Origin: a phage
DNA length: 43,583 nucleotides
Assembly: GCA_012646105.1 (NCBI GenBank)
Contig: GCA_012646105.1_4328.1
Reading direction: 5' to 3' (one strand)
Shown here in pieces: positions 1-43,583 of the stretch. A model generated the notes under the pieces. The model was not told the DNA's origin. It worked only from the letters and a program-made list of their open reading frames with translations, and searched no databases. The translations under genes and the position numbers were made by a program. Numbering within the stretch: position 1 is the stretch's first letter; each line of letters starts with the position of its first letter.

Positions 1-1063
1 ACGTTGCTGCCCGCATGGTAGTAATCTTTGATTCCTGATCAGCAACAGAAATACCACGTGCCCCAGGTTCGTCATAAACAGCGTACCCAAGTACCGCAGC
101 ATGGTCGGTAGTGTTCGTAATAAATGTCGTAAGGTCTGTTGTTGCCGCCGGGCTCTCTGTACCAAGAAAAACACCTAAACCAGCTGTGTAAGCATTGTTA
201 AGTAGTTTAGCCACTGTACCTGCTGAGTCTGTAGTACCATTGTTATCAAAGTAGCAGTAGTGGTTAATCGCATTAAATCCCAGAGATTTTATGTAAAGTA
301 ACTCGGCTAAATCATAGGCTGACTCTACGTAGCATATTCTTAGTTTCTCCGATGCTGTAACCCGTACATACGATGTAGCTGGAGTCTCCCCTAGCGCGTA
401 GCGAGAGGTATTAAGAATAAAATCTCCTGCTATCTTTTGACCACTGGAGTTTAAGATCTTACTTACCCCATAAACCTTACCTTTAACCCCTATGATATCT
501 TTGCCTGTATCCAATGCTGCCTGAATGGCGTCTGACCAGTCATCGCCCACCACAAGATTCGCGTAATCTTCGATGTAAGCAAACGAATCTGAGCGAACCT
601 GCAACCCATCAACTTGCGTCTGTTTCGCGGCCCCCGCCACCAAATCAACACCTTTTCCAGGCGCCGAAGACGCCAGTTCTTCACGAAGATTAGGGTCAGT
701 CTGTGGCTTCCAGTCTGCATTGCCGACAGGGTTAAATCCGGCAGGAACCGTAACAGGCAACGTACCCGCGTATGAATACCACGTTTTACTTACGGGGTCG
801 TACACCACTTTATCGCGGTCAGTTGCTGTTAAAGTTCCGCCGGTTGAGAAATCCCATGACACTGGAGAAAAACCAGCGTCCCTCAAAACCTCGGGAAGAG
901 TTTTCTGTGTCTGCCCTGTAACCTGGTTAGTGGCGTAATCAATATCAGCACCACCGGCAACGCCGCCTTGTTTACCGGTGATAACTTCAGCTTCAAAAAT
1001 CTGGTGCTTCTTTGCGGTTTGTAAATCCGCCAGGCTTAAAACGTCACTGCATCCGCTTGACAT
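1..1063 (-). CDS. tailspike / receptor-binding protein, N-terminal 354 codons (3' end lies beyond the window start)
   Basis: ATG at 1063-1061 (MSSGCSDVLSLADLQTAKKHQIFEAEV...); hand translation shows the frame open to base 1; last position of the late operon after the central fibre; glycosidase-like stretch LGYAVYDEPG. Confidence 0.55.
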   Translation of the reverse strand, partial: MSSGCSDVLSLADLQTAKKHQIFEAEVITGKQGGVAGGADIDYATNQVTGQTQKTLPEVLRDAGFSPVSWDFSTGGTLTATDRDKVVYDPVSKTWYSYAGTLPVTVPAGFNPVGNADWKPQTDPNLREELASSAPGKGVDLVAGAAKQTQVDGLQVRSDSFAYIEDYANLVVGDDWSDAIQAALDTGKDIIGVKGKVYGVSKILNSSGQKIAGDFILNTSRYALGETPATSYVRVTASEKLRICYVESAYDLAELLYIKSLGFNAINHYCYFDNNGTTDSAGTVAKLLNNAYTAGLGVFLGTESPAATTDLTTFITNTTDHAAVLGYAVYDEPGARGISVADQESKITTMRAAT

Positions 1064-1075
1064 ATAGAGTCCTCT

Positions 1076-3706
1076 TTAACTAAAACCGTTGCTGAATCCG
1101 TCGGAGAAACCGCGACCGAAAGGTGCGACGCCGTCGTATTTGTAGAAATCTGCTTCGTAGTTAACCCCGGTAATCTTAACTGTTCTGTCATCTCCCGGGT
1201 CAACTGTAGAAACAAGAATCATCTGAGCATTATGCCTTGCTTCGTTACCGAATGAAAACTCAGTTTTTAGCGCACTATTCCCTGTGTAAATTGCTTCTTG
1301 AGGCGCGGATAACATAACCACTTCTCGGTCGTGGCTTCCCTTGATAACAGAGATACTTTGCACCGAGCCGTCGCGCTTCTTGAGAATGAGTGAATGGTCA
1401 TCTCCGGGGGTAAATGTAACTGGCTGTGATAGTGTCAGGGTAAGCCCATTAACGGCAACGACATAACCATCTTGAGGTGCTACTCGCGAGCCTTTAACTA
1501 CGCTTATTGCCCGTCCTGGAAGCACAAAAACCCCTTCTTCTGTCGCCGTGAATGATACCGTAACTTTTTTCAACAAGTTCTTCTGATACCGGCGGTACGC
1601 GGCCCAATATGCTTGCCGGTAGTTGCGGATACCTTTAGAGTCATACGTTTCAGTATTAACGCCGCCCTCGGCTGGAATGCTAATAGTCTCTTTTACGTTG
1701 GTATCAGTGTCGATGTAGGAGAACTTAAGGCTATCGTATACCTGAGAGTCGTTAAATGTGCGTGTCCATTTTTCCGAAGCTGTTGTCTTGCTGCGGTGGG
1801 TGAACACCATCTCTGGCCCCATACGTGGACGTTCGAAATCCAGTAATATGTCCTGTCCTTTACGATATGGAGTGCAGAAAATAGCATCAGCTATTGTGCT
1901 GATGATATCCTGCATGGTCGTTTTATAATCGTCAAAGGTGTAGCAGAATTGTCCTGCATCAACGTTACCGAAATAGTTTTCTATCTCGGTTTGAGTTGCT
2001 AGCAATTTATCCATATTAGATGTTGTGAGGTTGAGATTCCCTACAACCGGGTCGCGGGCCAGACGGATTAAGGACTGAACCGCCTGCGTATTCGGCGTCA
2101 TTACGGTGTCAAACACACCATTACCCAGGTATTTATAAACCATCTCAGTCGCCACCATACGTAGTTGAGGCTGCTTAATCTCTGCGGCCCGAGGCGTCTG
2201 CTTACGTGCGGAGTGTACGGTAGTACGATTGCCGTAATGGGGTGTAGTGTCACGAACCTGCCCATAAAGGTTGATGTAGGAAACCTCGTCTACCACGGTA
2301 CCCTCGAAATCAAGGTCCAGGTTGGTAACACGACGGGCGCGCACCCGAACTTTAGACCTCACGGGCAAGTCGGCGTAAATAGTAACTCCAGTGTAATCCG
2401 CCGAACGCCCTGATAAAGTGGCCTGTTTCGAGTAAATATCTCCGTATGGCATGCCAGTTTCATCAAGTAGCTGATACTGAAGCTCGACAGTTACCGCCGT
2501 TCGCAATTTGCTGCCGTTATCCTTGTACATACCATTAGCGGCCGCGATGTTGGCTACTACGCGTTCAACTTCCAGGCGGTTTAAGATAGTCCAGTCGGTT
2601 AGTGTTTTTTCATAGGTGTCCACCGGCCCCACCCACGTGTCACTTCTCTGGGAAAGTGAATAGGCTGTTGAACCTAAAGCTGCCCAGTTAGACGCGCCGC
2701 CGGTGTCGACTCGCAGCTCGAAGTTATCAACATAAAGAACGCGGAAGTTGCCGTTGGTGTTTGTCACGCCCGGAACGTCGAAGTTATTGAACGACGCGGT
2801 GTCCCCTACCGATAATATTTCAGCAAAACCAGAATCCCCCGTGTCATCATACAGGTATCCAATTTTTGTAGCGGAGTCATACCTCACACGGCCAGTGTCG
2901 CTTGGGTTGACCCGAATATCGTTCTGCGCTTTAAGAACAGCACCGTCTACTTCATTAGAAGCGATAGTTATATAAAGATTCTGATTGATAGGCTCCCCTA
3001 CCAGAAGATGAGGGGTATTTGTATTGTTGGGGGATGTAAACGGCGCGTACACCGCGACAGAGGTCCCTGTAATCTCCTGTACTTTAGTATCACCGTCAGT
3101 AATGTCTTCTGCTTTGATATCAAGGTACCCGCGACCGGCGTCGTAGTATCCGTACTCAATAATGCGACCAGATTCATCGAATATCTTATACGTAGTCATG
3201 AGGTCGTTAGGGATAGTCTGGACCCTGCCGCAAATATCATACGACCGTTCATACGGACGCGGTTTATTGTTTCGGTCCGTCAGGCTGTTGTTGGGCGACT
3301 CCGCCTGCTGATTCGCTAAACTCGTTTTAGGTGTTTTCTGTGACGGAGAAATAAGTTTAGTGACAAACTTAAGTACGCCCAATGGGTCAAGCAATTTCCC
3401 GAGAAACCCACCGCCACCGCCTGCGCCTTCGATAATATGGAAAACATCATCTTCTTTCAGCGCTTCGAAGTTTTCCGTTACGTCGGTGTCCTCACCAATC
3501 TCGCCACGGTAAATACGTACTGGTACCCCGTCTGGGATGTTGGCGACAACATATTCCATAGGGGGTACGTTATGCCGTTTGTGGTCGAAAGTACCGCCTT
3601 CATTACGGGTGTAATGTATTATTAGCGCCAAAATTCTATCTCCGCATAAGTTTCGCGCAAGTCTTCCAGACGGTCTAACCGTACCTGGCGACTCGCGAGT
3701 TCGCAA
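1076..3706 (-). CDS. central tail fibre / tail-tip host-specificity protein (876 aa ORF; alternative ATG at 3559)
   Basis: six-frame ORF; size and position after minor tail genes; Gly-rich linker GGGGGF; no good RBS at either start so coupling to upstream gene likely. Confidence 0.6.
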   Translation of the reverse strand: MRTRESPGTVRPSGRLARNLCGDRILALIIHYTRNEGGTFDHKRHNVPPMEYVVANIPDGVPVRIYRGEIGEDTDVTENFEALKEDDVFHIIEGAGGGGGFLGKLLDPLGVLKFVTKLISPSQKTPKTSLANQQAESPNNSLTDRNNKPRPYERSYDICGRVQTIPNDLMTTYKIFDESGRIIEYGYYDAGRGYLDIKAEDITDGDTKVQEITGTSVAVYAPFTSPNNTNTPHLLVGEPINQNLYITIASNEVDGAVLKAQNDIRVNPSDTGRVRYDSATKIGYLYDDTGDSGFAEILSVGDTASFNNFDVPGVTNTNGNFRVLYVDNFELRVDTGGASNWAALGSTAYSLSQRSDTWVGPVDTYEKTLTDWTILNRLEVERVVANIAAANGMYKDNGSKLRTAVTVELQYQLLDETGMPYGDIYSKQATLSGRSADYTGVTIYADLPVRSKVRVRARRVTNLDLDFEGTVVDEVSYINLYGQVRDTTPHYGNRTTVHSARKQTPRAAEIKQPQLRMVATEMVYKYLGNGVFDTVMTPNTQAVQSLIRLARDPVVGNLNLTTSNMDKLLATQTEIENYFGNVDAGQFCYTFDDYKTTMQDIISTIADAIFCTPYRKGQDILLDFERPRMGPEMVFTHRSKTTASEKWTRTFNDSQVYDSLKFSYIDTDTNVKETISIPAEGGVNTETYDSKGIRNYRQAYWAAYRRYQKNLLKKVTVSFTATEEGVFVLPGRAISVVKGSRVAPQDGYVVAVNGLTLTLSQPVTFTPGDDHSLILKKRDGSVQSISVIKGSHDREVVMLSAPQEAIYTGNSALKTEFSFGNEARHNAQMILVSTVDPGDDRTVKITGVNYEADFYKYDGVAPFGRGFSDGFSNGFS

Positions 3707-3987
3707 TGACTGACCATACCGTCATAGTATACTCCAGCGTGCCAGATTACACGGTTTCTGTGTCGTGTTGCCATAAGAACGGCATCGAAGTTTTGCGGGG
3801 TTTCCGTGCGTACAAGACCTTTAGTGTCTTTATGACCTTCTTCAAATGCATCATTAATCTGTGTTGGCGAAGCGACGTTAAACTCAGGCGTGGCGAGGCC
3901 TGCGTCCGCACGGACGTTACGCACATGGTGCCAGCAATTACGACGGCGAAAATCGTACGGTAGCCCTGTATAAGAATTAATATTCAT
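3622..3987 (-). CDS. minor tail protein (121 aa)
   Basis: six-frame ORF, ATGA-type overlap with upstream gene, position in tail-tip module. Confidence 0.5.
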   Translation of the reverse strand: MNINSYTGLPYDFRRRNCWHHVRNVRADAGLATPEFNVASPTQINDAFEEGHKDTKGLVRTETPQNFDAVLMATRHRNRVIWHAGVYYDGMVSHCELASRQVRLDRLEDLRETYAEIEFWR

Positions 3988-4499
3988 GTAGACAAAACAC
4001 CACGTAACAATGGGATTACTGAAGGGGTCATTAACTCGCCAGTGGCTCTTTGGTTCAACATAGGAACGCCCACATCAGCCGTGAATACCCCTTTTTCCTG
4101 ATTGATTGTCTGTAGCTCATAAACCACCGGCCCGTCCGCCGGGTAGGTTAAGTCTGTGCTGACGAAACGGCGGAATATAAACTTAGGCAACACCGTATTG
4201 TCTGGCGGGATGCGGTCCATCTCATCGTCTAACTGGTTACCGATGTCAGGTAGCGCAAACGACGCCCTCTGGTCCATATCGTTATTGTTCGCAGCCCCTT
4301 TAGCCTCCATAGGCGTAGCCTCAAACGTAACGACTTCGCCCGTCTCTAACGTTGCCGTCAGGTCGGAAGTTCCGCGCACAAGTAAATACCGCTTCGAAAG
4401 AAGCGGGTGAACTATCTCTAATGTAGTGTAATCAATCTCACCGTCTGGGTTTGAGGCCAGCTTACGGCGGTAGGCTGCTTCTACAGATTCCTGGCTCAT
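3984..4499 (-). CDS. minor tail protein (171 aa)
   Basis: six-frame ORF in tail-tip module downstream of tape measure. Confidence 0.5.
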   Translation of the reverse strand: MSQESVEAAYRRKLASNPDGEIDYTTLEIVHPLLSKRYLLVRGTSDLTATLETGEVVTFEATPMEAKGAANNNDMDQRASFALPDIGNQLDDEMDRIPPDNTVLPKFIFRRFVSTDLTYPADGPVVYELQTINQEKGVFTADVGVPMLNQRATGELMTPSVIPLLRGVLST

Positions 4500-4502
4500 A
4501 AA

Positions 4503-5915
4503 TTAACCGTCCACATTAAAATCAATACGAGTGATATATTTACTGCCCCACGCAGAATCCGCTTGGGGGATAGTCGCGTAACCGTCAACAGCCTGAACGT
4601 TTACCACAGAGCTGTCGGAGTATGTAATGTCGATGCTTGTTGCGCCGTTCATTGCTACTTTTGCCGATGCCATAGGGCGTGCGGATGGTGATGCGTCAGT
4701 TACTATCGGCGACGTGGAGAATTCTGACTTTTCAACTTGTGAGTGTGCTACTAAAATGCCGCGAACGCCATCCCCTGTAAATGGGGCGAGTCTTGTAGAT
4801 GAAGGAGACGCCGCGGGAGATATTATGAATTGTCTATTTACCGACATATCACCGGTCGTGATGCATGTCATAGCGCAGTAATACCATCCATTTCCTAGCG
4901 GGTGTATTAATTTATTACTAGCGGTACCCGCCGACACGACCCCGTTCATTAAGTCAAAATTGGCGTACACATCAGAGATTCCGGTTGTAGACCCGAAGTA
5001 CAAAATTTGTAAAGTAGACGTGCCGTCAGCTTTAGCTATAACCGAGCACGTTAACTCTGTACCTAAAGGAACCGTAGATATATCACCGCCCATGTAGTGT
5101 GCCCCGGTCGCTGTAGTAGCTATAAGAAGGCTCGATGCGATTCCATTAAATAGCATATCAGGGTTTGACGATACAGTGACTCTACTGCGTAACGACCAAT
5201 TACCCCCGGTCAAGTCTTGACCGTATGGTAGCATATTAGTTGACGCCGCTTCAGGAGGCACACGACCAACAGCAGCACCGTCAATAAACGTAAGAGGCCA
5301 TTCGTTGGCGGCGGACCGCACAAGATTGCCGTTTCTGTCAATGTAGTAAACCTGTGGGCCGTCGTAAACTATACGGCTATCCAGCGTGGACGCCAGAAGG
5401 TTAATCGGCGGGTATCCCGCGGACCCTTCATTGCTCCAGATGCGCGGGAACGTCGTCTCGTAGTTCGCGTATATCTTCAGGAAACTGCCCAGGCAATCCC
5501 CGTAACAGCCATACAAATCTGGCAGATTCTTAGTAAGGCAAGTGTCTTCCTGAATTGCTGTGCGCTCGGCGGTAGCGGTAAACGTAATCACCCAATTCTT
5601 TCCATCGTCTGTGCTGTCACTAATGTCCGACGCAATAAGCACCTGATGGTCTTCGATACCTAACCCTGTATCATGCGGCATGATAAACGAAGACGCGCCG
5701 CCGTCTATGTTATTCAGGAAGCTATAAAAAGCCTGGCGACCGAGCGACGATACGACGAGCGTCACGCTAATCGGCACCGGTTCGAAGTATGTATCACGCC
5801 CCTGTCGAGGCACACCACCCTGAACTTCTGTACGCCAGATATTACTCCCTCGCGTTTGGGAGTACCCCTTCGACACTATAGGCCGAAGGGACATTGGGAA
5901 TCTCAAATCACTCAT
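4503..5915 (-). CDS. minor tail / distal tail protein (470 aa)
   Basis: six-frame ORF immediately downstream of tape measure gene. Confidence 0.5.
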   Translation of the reverse strand: MSDLRFPMSLRPIVSKGYSQTRGSNIWRTEVQGGVPRQGRDTYFEPVPISVTLVVSSLGRQAFYSFLNNIDGGASSFIMPHDTGLGIEDHQVLIASDISDSTDDGKNWVITFTATAERTAIQEDTCLTKNLPDLYGCYGDCLGSFLKIYANYETTFPRIWSNEGSAGYPPINLLASTLDSRIVYDGPQVYYIDRNGNLVRSAANEWPLTFIDGAAVGRVPPEAASTNMLPYGQDLTGGNWSLRSRVTVSSNPDMLFNGIASSLLIATTATGAHYMGGDISTVPLGTELTCSVIAKADGTSTLQILYFGSTTGISDVYANFDLMNGVVSAGTASNKLIHPLGNGWYYCAMTCITTGDMSVNRQFIISPAASPSSTRLAPFTGDGVRGILVAHSQVEKSEFSTSPIVTDASPSARPMASAKVAMNGATSIDITYSDSSVVNVQAVDGYATIPQADSAWGSKYITRIDFNVDG

Positions 5916-40915: not shown

Positions 40916-42332
40916 GTTTCAAAGGCGCGAGTACCAGAAGCTAATGACTTCGTTCATGTTGCAGCACCATCGCTGCAACATATGGGCAAGCATGGGTGCC
41001 GGGAAGACTGGCAGCGTACTGTGGGCTTTAAACCGCTTGTTCCGCAACGGTCAGCTTACGGAAGAGGACCGCGTGTTAATCCTCGCCCCGTTACGCGTTG
41101 CATCGGGTACATGGCCCGCAGAACAAGAGAAATGGAACTTCCCGTGTCTGCGTGTCGTAGACGCGACCGGTTCAGAGAAGCGCCGCATCGCGGCGCTGGA
41201 GTCGGACGCTAACGTGGTATGCACCAACTACGAAGTTATCGAGTGGCTGATTGACTACTACGGCAAAGACGACTGGCCTTTTACGGTTATCGTTGCCGAT
41301 GAGAGCACGAAGCTGAAATCTTTCCGTAGCCGTTCAGGGGGCAGCAAGCGGGCAAAGGCGCTTAGTAAAGTGGCATTCGGTAAGGTTAAGCGTTTCATCA
41401 ACCTTACCGGTACGCCATCACCAAATGGCCTCAAAGACCTGTGGGGCCAGAACTGGTTTATCGACGCTGGCGAGCGCCTCGGTTCTTCATACACGGCATT
41501 CACCGACCGATGGTTTAACTCTGTCCAGAAAGGTAAGTCGGCGATGGCGCGAGAGTATCATGCGCGCCCGGGGGCGGATAATGAGATTCACCAGAAGATG
41601 AAGGACATTAGTCTCACGATTGACGCTGCCGAGTGGTTTGGCTGCGAAGCGCCGATTATTGTACCGGTTGAAATCGACCTGCCGAAGAAAGCGCGTCAGG
41701 CGTACATCGATATGGAGGAGAAGTTATTCGCGGAACTGGAGAGCGGAGAAGTTGAAGCTGCTAACGCCGCGGCGAAGACATCTAAGTGTCTGCAGATTGC
41801 ATCCGGTGCCGTATATGTGTCGGGGCCAGATGGTGAAGCAACGAAAGACTGGGAGAAAGTGCACGACACGAAACTGGATGCGCTGGAGTCGATTGTTGAG
41901 GAGTTACAGGGTGCGCCGCTGCTTGTGGCCTATCAGTTTAAGCACGAACTGGAGCGCATCCTTAAGCGATTCCCGCAGGCTCAGGCGTTTGCCAAAGGCG
42001 CTAAGGGTAATAAGCAGATGGAAGCGTGGAACCGAGGTGAGATACCTATGCTCTTGATACACCCAGCCTCAGCAGGCCACGGACTGTCGCTACAACACGG
42101 CGGGCACCACATGGCCTTTATGAGCCAGGGGTGGAACCTGGAACATTATCTGCAGGTTATCGAGCGTATAGGCCCAGTAAGGCAGATGCAATCCGGATAC
42201 AAACGGTCTGTATTCATTTATCAAATAATAGCACGAGATACTCTTGATGAAGTTGTCGCCTCTCGTACAGACGAGAAAAGGTCTGTGCAGGATGAACTAC
42301 TTAATTATATGAAGCGCAGAGGTAAGAAATGA
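40908..42332 (+). CDS. SNF2/DEAD-like superfamily 2 helicase (474 aa)
   Basis: Walker A ASMGAGKT, DEST box VADESTKLK, C-terminal helicase domain; overlaps MTase by 8 nt. Confidence 0.7.
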   Translation: MSKFQRREYQKLMTSFMLQHHRCNIWASMGAGKTGSVLWALNRLFRNGQLTEEDRVLILAPLRVASGTWPAEQEKWNFPCLRVVDATGSEKRRIAALESDANVVCTNYEVIEWLIDYYGKDDWPFTVIVADESTKLKSFRSRSGGSKRAKALSKVAFGKVKRFINLTGTPSPNGLKDLWGQNWFIDAGERLGSSYTAFTDRWFNSVQKGKSAMAREYHARPGADNEIHQKMKDISLTIDAAEWFGCEAPIIVPVEIDLPKKARQAYIDMEEKLFAELESGEVEAANAAAKTSKCLQIASGAVYVSGPDGEATKDWEKVHDTKLDALESIVEELQGAPLLVAYQFKHELERILKRFPQAQAFAKGAKGNKQMEAWNRGEIPMLLIHPASAGHGLSLQHGGHHMAFMSQGWNLEHYLQVIERIGPVRQMQSGYKRSVFIYQIIARDTLDEVVASRTDEKRSVQDELLNYMKRRGKK

Positions 42333-42514
42333 AACTTAATGTTGGCGATGAAATATACAGCGTTCACTCATTCAATACTTTCACCGTCGAGTACATATCA
42401 AAAGACGGCAACAGCTTCGTTTTGGTAAGCTCAGATGGTAGATATGAAAAGTCATGGTGCTACACGCTACCAGATATAAAGCGCAGTTTTAAGAAAAGCG
42501 AAGGTAAGAAATGA
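42329..42514 (+). CDS. hypothetical protein (61 aa)
   Basis: six-frame ORF, ATGA coupling. Confidence 0.45.
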   Translation: MKLNVGDEIYSVHSFNTFTVEYISKDGNSFVLVSSDGRYEKSWCYTLPDIKRSFKKSEGKK

Positions 42515-42645
42515 ACATCATAGCCCCAATTCCAGCATTGCAAAAACGTATCAAGGAACTCGAAGAGGAGGTTCTACGACTACGGCAGAAAAGAGACGCC
42601 GCTAATGCGCAACTGGCGTTTGTACTGGAGAAGTTATCAGAATAG
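42511..42645 (+). CDS. small coiled-coil protein (44 aa)
   Basis: hand translated (MNIIAPIPALQKRIKELEEEVLRLRQ...); ATGA coupling. Confidence 0.4.
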   Translation: MNIIAPIPALQKRIKELEEEVLRLRQKRDAANAQLAFVLEKLSE

Positions 42646-42652
42646 TAGAGAA

Positions 42653-42672
42653 AAGGCCCCATTCGGGGCCTT
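42653..42672. terminator. bidirectional rho-independent terminator
   Basis: AAGGCCCC-ATTC-GGGGCCTT perfect 8 bp stem, T-run after, A-run before. Confidence 0.65.
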
Positions 42673-42676
42673 ATTC

Positions 42677-43583
42677 TTACCAGTCAGTGTAAACGATTAA
42701 TCCACGCATTAAGTTTCTATATATTGTTGTGGTGCTGGAAGGAAAGTTGAATTGTATTGTAGACATTTTACCTTTTACAGGTGATGCAATAGCACTCTTC
42801 ATCCCAAACTTAAATGGCGCTGCCGAAGTGATAGCGGTATAAGTTACGTCCTCTCCGAAGTATCCATCCTCTGTAGCCCCCATTAAGACTGCACCATTTA
42901 TAGATGCACCACCATTCAGTGCGATCATCTGAACCCAAGCGCTAAAGCCTTTCCTATACCTGATAGTGGTAGCAAAAGCTGACGATGCACCTTTGAATGC
43001 AATACCAGACACTTTTACATCGGTTTGCGTGGTTGTATGGTCACTATTGGCAGAAGCCGTAATTATACGGGTAGGCCATGCATTATTGGTAATCAAACCA
43101 TCGCTACTATTTGGGTCTTTAGGCATAGCCTTTTGGAGTAAACCACCTAAACTCCAATGAGTTCCTGATGTACGCCCACCTCCAAATAGATAAGCCTCAG
43201 TAACGAGGGGTTTAACATAGGTTTTCGCAGCGAGTCCTTGTACCAGTTCCCTAAACCTTTGTGTATCTCGTATTCTTGCTGTGATCCCAGCATCACCGAC
43301 ACCATCCCATACAAAAGCACCAAATTCACCATTGCCGGCTTGTCCGAAGATATCACCAGCTTTTTGCATCTGCTCTACGGTGCCAAAGTTTGCACCTGAA
43401 AAGGCTGCTACTACAGGGATAACACGCGTAGTATTAAGCATCTGCATTAAGCCGCCATAGTCTAAGCGCATATGAATCAAGTCCTCTTCTACTGCCTCGT
43501 CAGTAGTAACACCATCCCGTGCTAATGAGTATGAGTTACACAGGACTATGTCATATTTGGTTGAGTAGCACTGTTCGAATGGA
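42677..43583 (-). CDS. 5'-truncated ORF (at least 302 codons), possible C-terminal part of tailspike or other tail protein
   Basis: frame open to the window end with no stop; ORF-track start 43480 is only the first TTG; ends at bidirectional terminator. Confidence 0.45.
   Translation of the reverse strand, partial: PFEQCYSTKYDIVLCNSYSLARDGVTTDEAVEEDLIHMRLDYGGLMQMLNTTRVIPVVAAFSGANFGTVEQMQKAGDIFGQAGNGEFGAFVWDGVGDAGITARIRDTQRFRELVQGLAAKTYVKPLVTEAYLFGGGRTSGTHWSLGGLLQKAMPKDPNSSDGLITNNAWPTRIITASANSDHTTTQTDVKVSGIAFKGASSAFATTIRYRKGFSAWVQMIALNGGASINGAVLMGATEDGYFGEDVTYTAITSAAPFKFGMKSAIASPVKGKMSTIQFNFPSSTTTIYRNLMRGLIVYTDW

Follow-up and report, generated by a model that had tools for sequence, protein, structure and literature searches.

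A tailspike gene divided between the ends of a Kagunavirus-like phage genome encodes a predicted TIM-barrel receptor module with an unusual catalytic signature

Nearly all characterised tailspike depolymerases are β-helices or β-propellers. TIM-barrel spikes go unmentioned in two large surveys of Klebsiella phage depolymerases, and this kind of spike is already known but sparsely documented. Its examples include four spikes of Acinetobacter baumannii phages (vB_AbaP_46-62_Aci07, Bestia gp53, vB_AbaM_AB3P2 and APK26 gp48), in which a TIM-barrel "(trans)glycosidase domain" has been linked to depolymerase activity (PMC11823257, 2025). PMC11126041 treats hydrolysis of the K26 capsule by APK26 gp48 as established; the K26 host is also that of Bestia. 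Catalytic residues or a mechanism for the Acinetobacter spikes are absent from PMC11823257 and PMC11126041, and the Aristophanes paper gives no APK26 cleavage site. In the Kagunaviruses, which have genomes of 41-44 kb and depend on surface glycans, the gene for the J-like central fibre is immediately followed by that of an enzymatic tailspike (PMC11990801).

We analysed a 43,583-nt stretch of phage DNA (the window), which is whole-genome length for a Kagunavirus. In megablast, bases 669-4000 aligned at 86-88% identity with the 41-45-kb genomes of many Kagunaviruses, which are E. coli siphophages of the Guernseyvirinae, while bases 1-668 had no near-identity match among 50,697 phage records. 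From its sequence we assign the phage as a Kagunavirus-like Guernseyvirinae siphophage of E. coli.

The initial annotation had placed at the left edge a minus-strand tailspike ORF starting at an ATG at 1063 and open for 354 codons to base 1. Re-translation of 1-1063 bore this out, giving 354 sense codons from the ATG (1063-1061) with zero in-frame stops, a run expected to stay open in random sequence with p ~4e-8. Both peptides quoted in that annotation, FNAINHYCYFDNNGTTDSAG and VLGYAVYDEPGARG, were present in this frame. This 5' part of the gene (1-1063) encodes aa 1-354 of a 670-aa protein, or 53% of it, and base 1 is the leftover first base of codon 355. A Shine-Dalgarno sequence read from the DNA (AAGAGGA, 1070-1076, minus strand) precedes the ATG by 6 nt and directly adjoins the stop codon (TAA, 1078-1076) of the gene upstream, an 876-aa J-like tail-tip ORF (1076-3706, minus strand) that matched phrog_469 (E 3e-243) and also phrog_31, "central tail fiber J". 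The identification as a tailspike likewise held, as the N-terminus matched tailspike/tail-fibre PHROGs (E 6e-48) and the locus adjoins the J-like gene. Near-identical homologues of full length were also present (P0001, 670 aa). As had been proposed, the spike gene also closes the structural block of the minus strand; beyond it come a strong hairpin terminator and then convergent plus-strand replication genes ending with an SNF2-type helicase. This location, directly after the J-like fibre and at the end of the structural operon, is that described for Guernseyvirinae spikes.

Folding located the terminator at 42647-42672 as the hairpin AAGGCCCC-GAAU-GGGGCCUU followed by UUUUCUCU (minus strand), with a ΔG of -21.8 kcal/mol and a z score of -4.4; none of 200 shuffled sequences was as stable. 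The folded stem-loop spans 42653-42672 and a U-tract follows it; the stem is GC-rich (GGCCCC/GGGGCC) with T-rich tracts on both sides. Since the other strand is T-rich too, the hairpin, which separates the spike gene from the replication genes converging on it, is probably bidirectional. A simple consensus terminator scan did not report the hairpin at 42647-42672.

The initial annotation further held that the window starts inside the receptor-binding gene, so that part of the host-range information lies outside it. The first statement was correct, but the remainder of the gene is in the window, on the same strand at the opposite end (43582 to 42677), where a minus-strand frame runs from 43582 to a TAA stop at 42679-42677 and comprises the C-terminal 301 codons. 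By tblastn, the right piece in full and the enzymatic portion of the left piece fell next to each other within single ORFs of two phages, TH27 of E. coli (Drexlerviridae; 54-57% identity) and Monomax of Pectobacterium (Autographiviridae; 56% and 35% for the left and right pieces); in a joint alignment, 15 and 14 residues separated the two pieces. They were also colinear on the single protein P0001, to which they are 97.7% and 98.3% identical, and a large protein search returned 670-aa proteins (P0001-P0003, 91-95% identical) that span the junction with SKSLIMVDQIPSGGG. On the metagenome contig that carries P0001 (L003), base 1 of the window corresponds to 4063 and base 43583 to 4107, with both flanks 98.5-98.7% identical, and therefore exactly 43 nt are missing. 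The stray coding-strand bases at the two ends, T and T, agree with codon position 1 of Ser355 and codon position 3 of Gly369 (base 43583 being the third base of codon 369, minus strand), and the frame offset between the halves is what a 43-nt (1+3n) gap gives. The missing bases are expected to encode (S)KSLIMVDQIPSGG(G), restoring a 670-codon ORF.

Had the window held the N-terminal half only, the distal receptor-binding part would lie in flanking sequence. The naive circular join would fit this account, as it fails to extend the ORF; joining base 1 directly to base 43583 produces a stop after 12 codons. An open frame in a different phase, together with the 43-nt gap seen against homologues, led us to reject this stop as the end of the gene, and since the 301-codon frame runs colinear with the C-terminal half of the protein in TH27, Monomax and P0001, it is scarcely credible that the distal part is elsewhere. 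No terminal direct repeat was found between the window ends. On these alignments, one tailspike gene of 670 codons is divided between 1-1063 and 42677-43583, and the window reads as a circularly permuted Kagunavirus-like genome of roughly 43.6 kb, linearised inside the spike gene with the loss of 43 nt; its full length would be about 43,626 nt. With 301 codons at the right end and only 43 nt absent, nearly all of the host-range determinant is therefore inside the window. A spike that had been flagged as running off the edge is thus almost fully contained: 655 of its 670 residues can be read directly, and relatives of 98% identity supply the others. The window itself can serve as a complete phage genome. 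The break itself, 43 nt wide and without terminal overlap, looks like an assembly or linearisation artefact, possibly at a hypervariable spike.

The spike has a modular architecture. Its N-terminal anchor or adaptor domain (aa 1-~131; 671-1063, minus strand) is conserved among Kagunavirus spikes and includes a small TSP1/gp66-N-like β domain (aa ~66-120). The anchor matched phrog_29731 (E 6e-48), tail-spike PHROG matches were confined to aa 1-~148, and profile matches in the PDB were to the N-terminal domains of tail spikes (9occ, 9vvr, 5w6f and 9lna). Spikes of Kagunavirus and other Guernseyvirinae phages (fFiEco03, Ivi, K1G/K1H and BASEL Bas70-76) occupy the same locus with an anchor of ~131 aa that is 86-88% identical at the nucleotide level, and they are likewise expected to be glycan-dependent determinants of host range. 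However, from aa ~132 onwards the receptor modules are unrelated, described Kagunavirus spikes being endosialidases or β-helix enzymes and that of the window a TIM barrel. Megablast identity to Kagunavirus genomes ended at nt 669-702 (aa ~121-131), and homology with Monomax and TH27 began at GKGVDLV (aa 136), which together place a recombination joint at about aa 131-136. The window spike thus combines a genus-conserved anchor with an exchangeable receptor module.

The horizontally exchanged module, encoded throughout on the minus strand, begins with a helical neck and a small β/α sub-domain (aa ~132-240; 344-670). The TIM barrel is divided by the window ends into a first half, β1 to α4 (aa 241-354; 2-343), and a second half (aa 370-512; 43154-43583), and is followed by a C-terminal β-sandwich resembling CBM4/6/15 (aa ~513-670; 42680-43153; ending ...RGLIVYTDW), delimited by DSSP of the model and by Foldseek. 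Part of the sub-domain (aa ~160-215; window ~418-586) keeps a pectate-lyase-like N-cap motif, FAYIEDY...DDWSDAIQAALDTG, with the segment FAYIEDYANLVVGDDWSDAIQAALDTGKDIIG..., as indicated by PF12708 matches in four family members and by alignment to CBA120 TSP3. This suggests that the barrel replaced a β-helix behind a retained cap.

The fold was predicted with AlphaFold2 from a 61-sequence alignment, as a monomer of P0001 standing in for the window protein. The model had a mean pLDDT of 85, with values above 90 over most of aa 160-670, and showed a disordered or helical N-terminus, a β domain (aa 66-120), a helical neck, the sub-domain (aa 161-240), eight β/α repeats (aa 242-504) and a β-sandwich (aa 535-668) by DSSP. 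The modelled (β/α)8 barrel is the fold of clan GH-A, and the closest folds in Foldseek were indeed TIM barrels of clan GH-A, not of clan GH-K (GH18, GH20); the C-terminal domain resembled carbohydrate-binding modules CBM4/6/15 (TM, target, 0.38-0.53). The initial guess of a glycosidase-like segment was therefore well placed, as the stretches on which it was based correspond to β2 and β4 of the predicted clan-GH-A-like barrel. The enzyme part is accordingly modelled as a sugar-cutting TIM barrel and not the usual β-helix. We considered a right-handed β-helix depolymerase and rejected it on the alternating β/α barrel at aa 242-504, only the N-cap (aa ~160-215) being PF12708-like. Foldseek matches to the Klebsiella K2-2 tailspike (TM ~0.2, probability 0.6-0.9) were partial domain matches and were also set aside.

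This relationship is distant at the sequence level. Pfam and PHROGs searches with both halves of the enzymatic module returned nothing relevant, and no Pfam GH family appeared even at E <=10. Phmmer of both pieces against PDB sequences gave only the N-terminal tail-fibre match (9lna) and spurious Fab matches, and our PDB searches found no solved structure with a sequence matching the barrel. The clan GH-A enzymes (GH2 β-glucuronidase, GH5/GH164 mannosidases and GH42/GH35 galactosidases) are 5-13% identical to the window protein, which has no Pfam GH match and whose barrel sits in a presumably trimeric phage spike. For the GH2 model PF02836 (Glyco_hydro_2_C) the window pieces scored below the Pfam gathering threshold. 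A remote relative, P0205, passed it (21.9 bits against a cut-off of 21) and was the only family member to do so, which supports distant homology to clan GH-A.

A profile search of 1.84 billion cluster representatives at E <= 1e-3 recovered 256 relatives, so the family is small; the module was found mainly on phage spikes. Few proteins in a viral structure library share the fold, namely the Aci07 depolymerase (TM 0.69), the PE3-1 "lyase" (TM 0.57) and a few unnamed proteins. The Foldseek comparison of the Aci07 model with the spike model had an E value of 3e-47. Tblastn to the Acinetobacter set gave E values of 1e-25 to 4e-8 at 28-36% identity; by halves, the values were 1e-25 to 1e-7 for the left half and 2e-13 to 1e-10 for the right half. 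These spikes share a homologous barrel and C-terminal domain with the window protein, but are only 24-36% identical, act in another host genus on another glycan, and carry other adaptors (Friunavirus, myovirus). Elsewhere the module is fused to PF09008 (P22-type head-binding), PF18668 (TSP1/gp66-N) or PF03906 (T7 tail-fibre N-termini) in Escherichia, Enterobacter and Acinetobacter sequences. The module moves among adaptors of siphophage, podophage and myophage type, in Escherichia, Enterobacter, Pectobacterium and Acinetobacter.

A blastn search for prophage copies in 5,426 complete E. coli genomes returned one decayed remnant and no O-serogroup information. This only match (L006; E. coli CUPF06, NZ_CP182174, 1409204-1410286) is a shortened copy of the module, 360 aa long and 73% identical in nucleotides. 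It sits near dsdA within the decayed remains of a P22-like prophage, with IS1, IS5 and an acyltransferase-family gene on its flanks. Our guess is that the latter is an O-antigen acetylase.

We then compared the barrel with clan GH-A active sites. A barrel-only profile (A2) reached E. coli β-glucuronidase (GH2) with E 0.003, aligning ...GYSVYDEP... with ...MWSIANEP... and ...DSYS with ...NRYY. In this alignment to the uidA product, D331-E332-P333 corresponds to N412-E413-P414 and Y387 to Y468, and global profile alignment added W461 opposite W549. In this enzyme E413 is the acid/base and E504 the nucleophile. In the window D331-E332-P333 lies at 73-65 (predicted acid/base Glu332 at 68-70) and β6 N385-S-Y387 has its tyrosine at 43529-43531, all on the minus strand. 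The first barrel half (2-343) also contains H268/Y269 and a GFN motif before β2 (N264; 272-274), a feature likewise typical of clan GH-A. Across 198 family sequences E332 and Y387 were 100% conserved and D331 99.5% (Asp in 197 of 198), and D331, E332, P333 and Y387 remained near-absolute down to ~20% identity. The clan GH-A acid/base glutamate at the C-terminal end of β4 was thus present in all 198 sequences, as E332. The asparagine that precedes it in the clan (N-E-P) was not found, its place being taken by the aspartate.

No counterpart of the nucleophile glutamate at the C-terminal end of β7 was found either. In the window protein the predicted β7 (V423-A428) is followed by A429-F430 (43400-43408, minus strand), without a carboxylate, and among the 198 sequences columns 428-432 were occupied by G/S/Q, A/L/T, F/Y, T/S/L and D/G/Q, with no conserved acid. 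We placed β7 by the order of secondary structure in the AlphaFold2 model and by conservation, with which the remote members agree; hmmalign and hhalign to E. coli β-glucuronidase for the E504 equivalent were unreliable around β7. Two other acids were fairly conserved: D462 at the end of β8 (W461-D462, 43304-43309, minus strand) was D in 83% and E in 5%, with D/E/N in 183 of 198 and invariance in the 61 closer relatives, and D362 at the end of β5 was D in 69% and E in 12% (D/E in 161 of 198). D380, though 100% conserved, was rejected as a catalytic residue; it precedes β6, and since it lies at the barrel bottom and aligns with D461 of β-glucuronidase it is probably structural. Unusual conservation for a TIM-barrel surface helix was seen at Q343 (99.5%), R351, T354 and K356 (aa 343-356, α4-β5; window ~2-37), which could belong to the substrate groove or to an interface between trimer subunits.

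The absence of the canonical β7 nucleophile could mean that the barrel is an inactive, lectin-like receptor-binding domain that binds glycan and does not cut it, and the enzyme activity of the close relatives (>50% identical) is itself only predicted. We regard this as very unlikely. Conservation as near-absolute as that of D331, E332, P333 and Y387 in 198 sequences is what selection on an active site typically leaves, depolymerase activity (halos, CPS cleavage) is reported for distant relatives, and Kagunavirus spikes are described as enzymatic (PMC11990801).

The account that we favour, and hold with good confidence, is of a split tailspike gene whose product joins a modular anchor to an exchanged TIM-barrel receptor module, with Glu332 as acid/base and substrate-assisted hydrolysis. 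The genus-specific anchor (aa 1-~131) would attach the spike to the tail tip beside the J-like central fibre, and the exchanged module (aa ~136-670), comprising neck, clan-GH-A-like barrel and CBM-like β-sandwich, would face the host. By analogy with the Kagunaviruses and the Acinetobacter relatives, the spike may bind and hydrolyse a polysaccharide of the host surface (O-antigen or capsule), giving the tail access to the outer membrane, and may in this way set the host range. At the end of β4, Glu332 would serve as the general acid/base. Our preferred chemistry is a retaining, neighbouring-group hydrolysis of a β-linked 2-acetamido sugar, in which Asp331 would polarise the acetamido group and Tyr387 would stabilise the oxazolinium intermediate. 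We prefer it because an invariant Asp, not Asn, precedes Glu332 and because β7 has no conserved carboxylate. GH20, GH18 and GH123 are substrate-assisted TIM-barrel glycosidases with an adjacent Asp-Glu pair, a tyrosine and no enzymic nucleophile. Their Asp-Glu pair at the end of β4, conserved tyrosine and lack of an enzymic nucleophile reproduce the D331/E332/Y387 pattern, a likeness at the motif level only. Against this chemistry, the nearest folds belong to clan GH-A and not to the families of clan GH-K, GH18 and GH20, in which substrate assistance is used.

Alternatively, Glu332 could act in a classical two-carboxylate mechanism, with Asp462 or Asp362 as nucleophile (retaining) or general base (inverting), in which case the sugar in subsite -1 need not be a 2-acetamido sugar. 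The fair conservation of both aspartates favours this, as does the fold comparison, whose nearest matches are without exception classical enzymes of clan GH-A. However, unlike D331, E332 and Y387, neither D462 nor D362 is universal, with remote members carrying W-G, W-I, F-N or W-S at 461-462, and the change from Asn to Asp beside the acid/base would be left unexplained. We also know of no precedent in clan GH-A for a nucleophile on β8 or β5. We judge a two-carboxylate enzyme possible but doubtful.

If hydrolysis is substrate-assisted, as we prefer, the module would define a new glycoside hydrolase family, one that could serve in typing O-antigens or capsules and in engineering depolymerases. 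The capsule of the Acinetobacter K26 host offers one indirect point of comparison. K26 CPS synthesis is initiated by ItrA3, which transfers GlcNAc-1-P, implying that GlcNAc is the first sugar; by analogy, this is weakly consistent with a HexNAc-directed enzyme. More tentatively, the barrel may be a small uncurated offshoot of clan GH-A that lost its β7 nucleophile, exchanged NEP for DEP and acts as an endo-β-N-acetylhexosaminidase on the repeat junctions of O-antigen or capsule. Should that prove true, it would represent a new family of glycoside hydrolases, in which a clan GH-A scaffold had switched its mechanism. The window spike carries a rare TIM-barrel module with an unusual catalytic signature, DEP with no β7 carboxylate, and this signature is the one part that could be new.

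Several smaller features were noted around the spike gene. The mechanically called start of the J-like ORF (1076-3706, minus strand) is a TTG giving 876 aa, against 851 aa called in L003; the real start is probably ~25 codons downstream, which would lessen the overlap with the preceding 121-aa gene. On the plus strand, a 44-aa ORF with a coiled-coil look (MNIIAPIPALQKRIKELEEEVLRLRQKRDAANAQLAFVLEKLSE; 42511-42645) ends just before the terminator hairpin; its DNA is 98.7% conserved in L003, where no gene was called. Its start overlaps the stop of a 61-aa ORF (ATGA; 42329-42514, plus strand), of which 42332-42512 is without match in L003. The 61-aa ORF stands in the place of an unrelated 161-aa HNH_3 homing-endonuclease gene that L003 carries between spike and SNF2 helicase (5176-5661), and the mobile endonuclease beside the spike gene is thus a presence/absence polymorphism.
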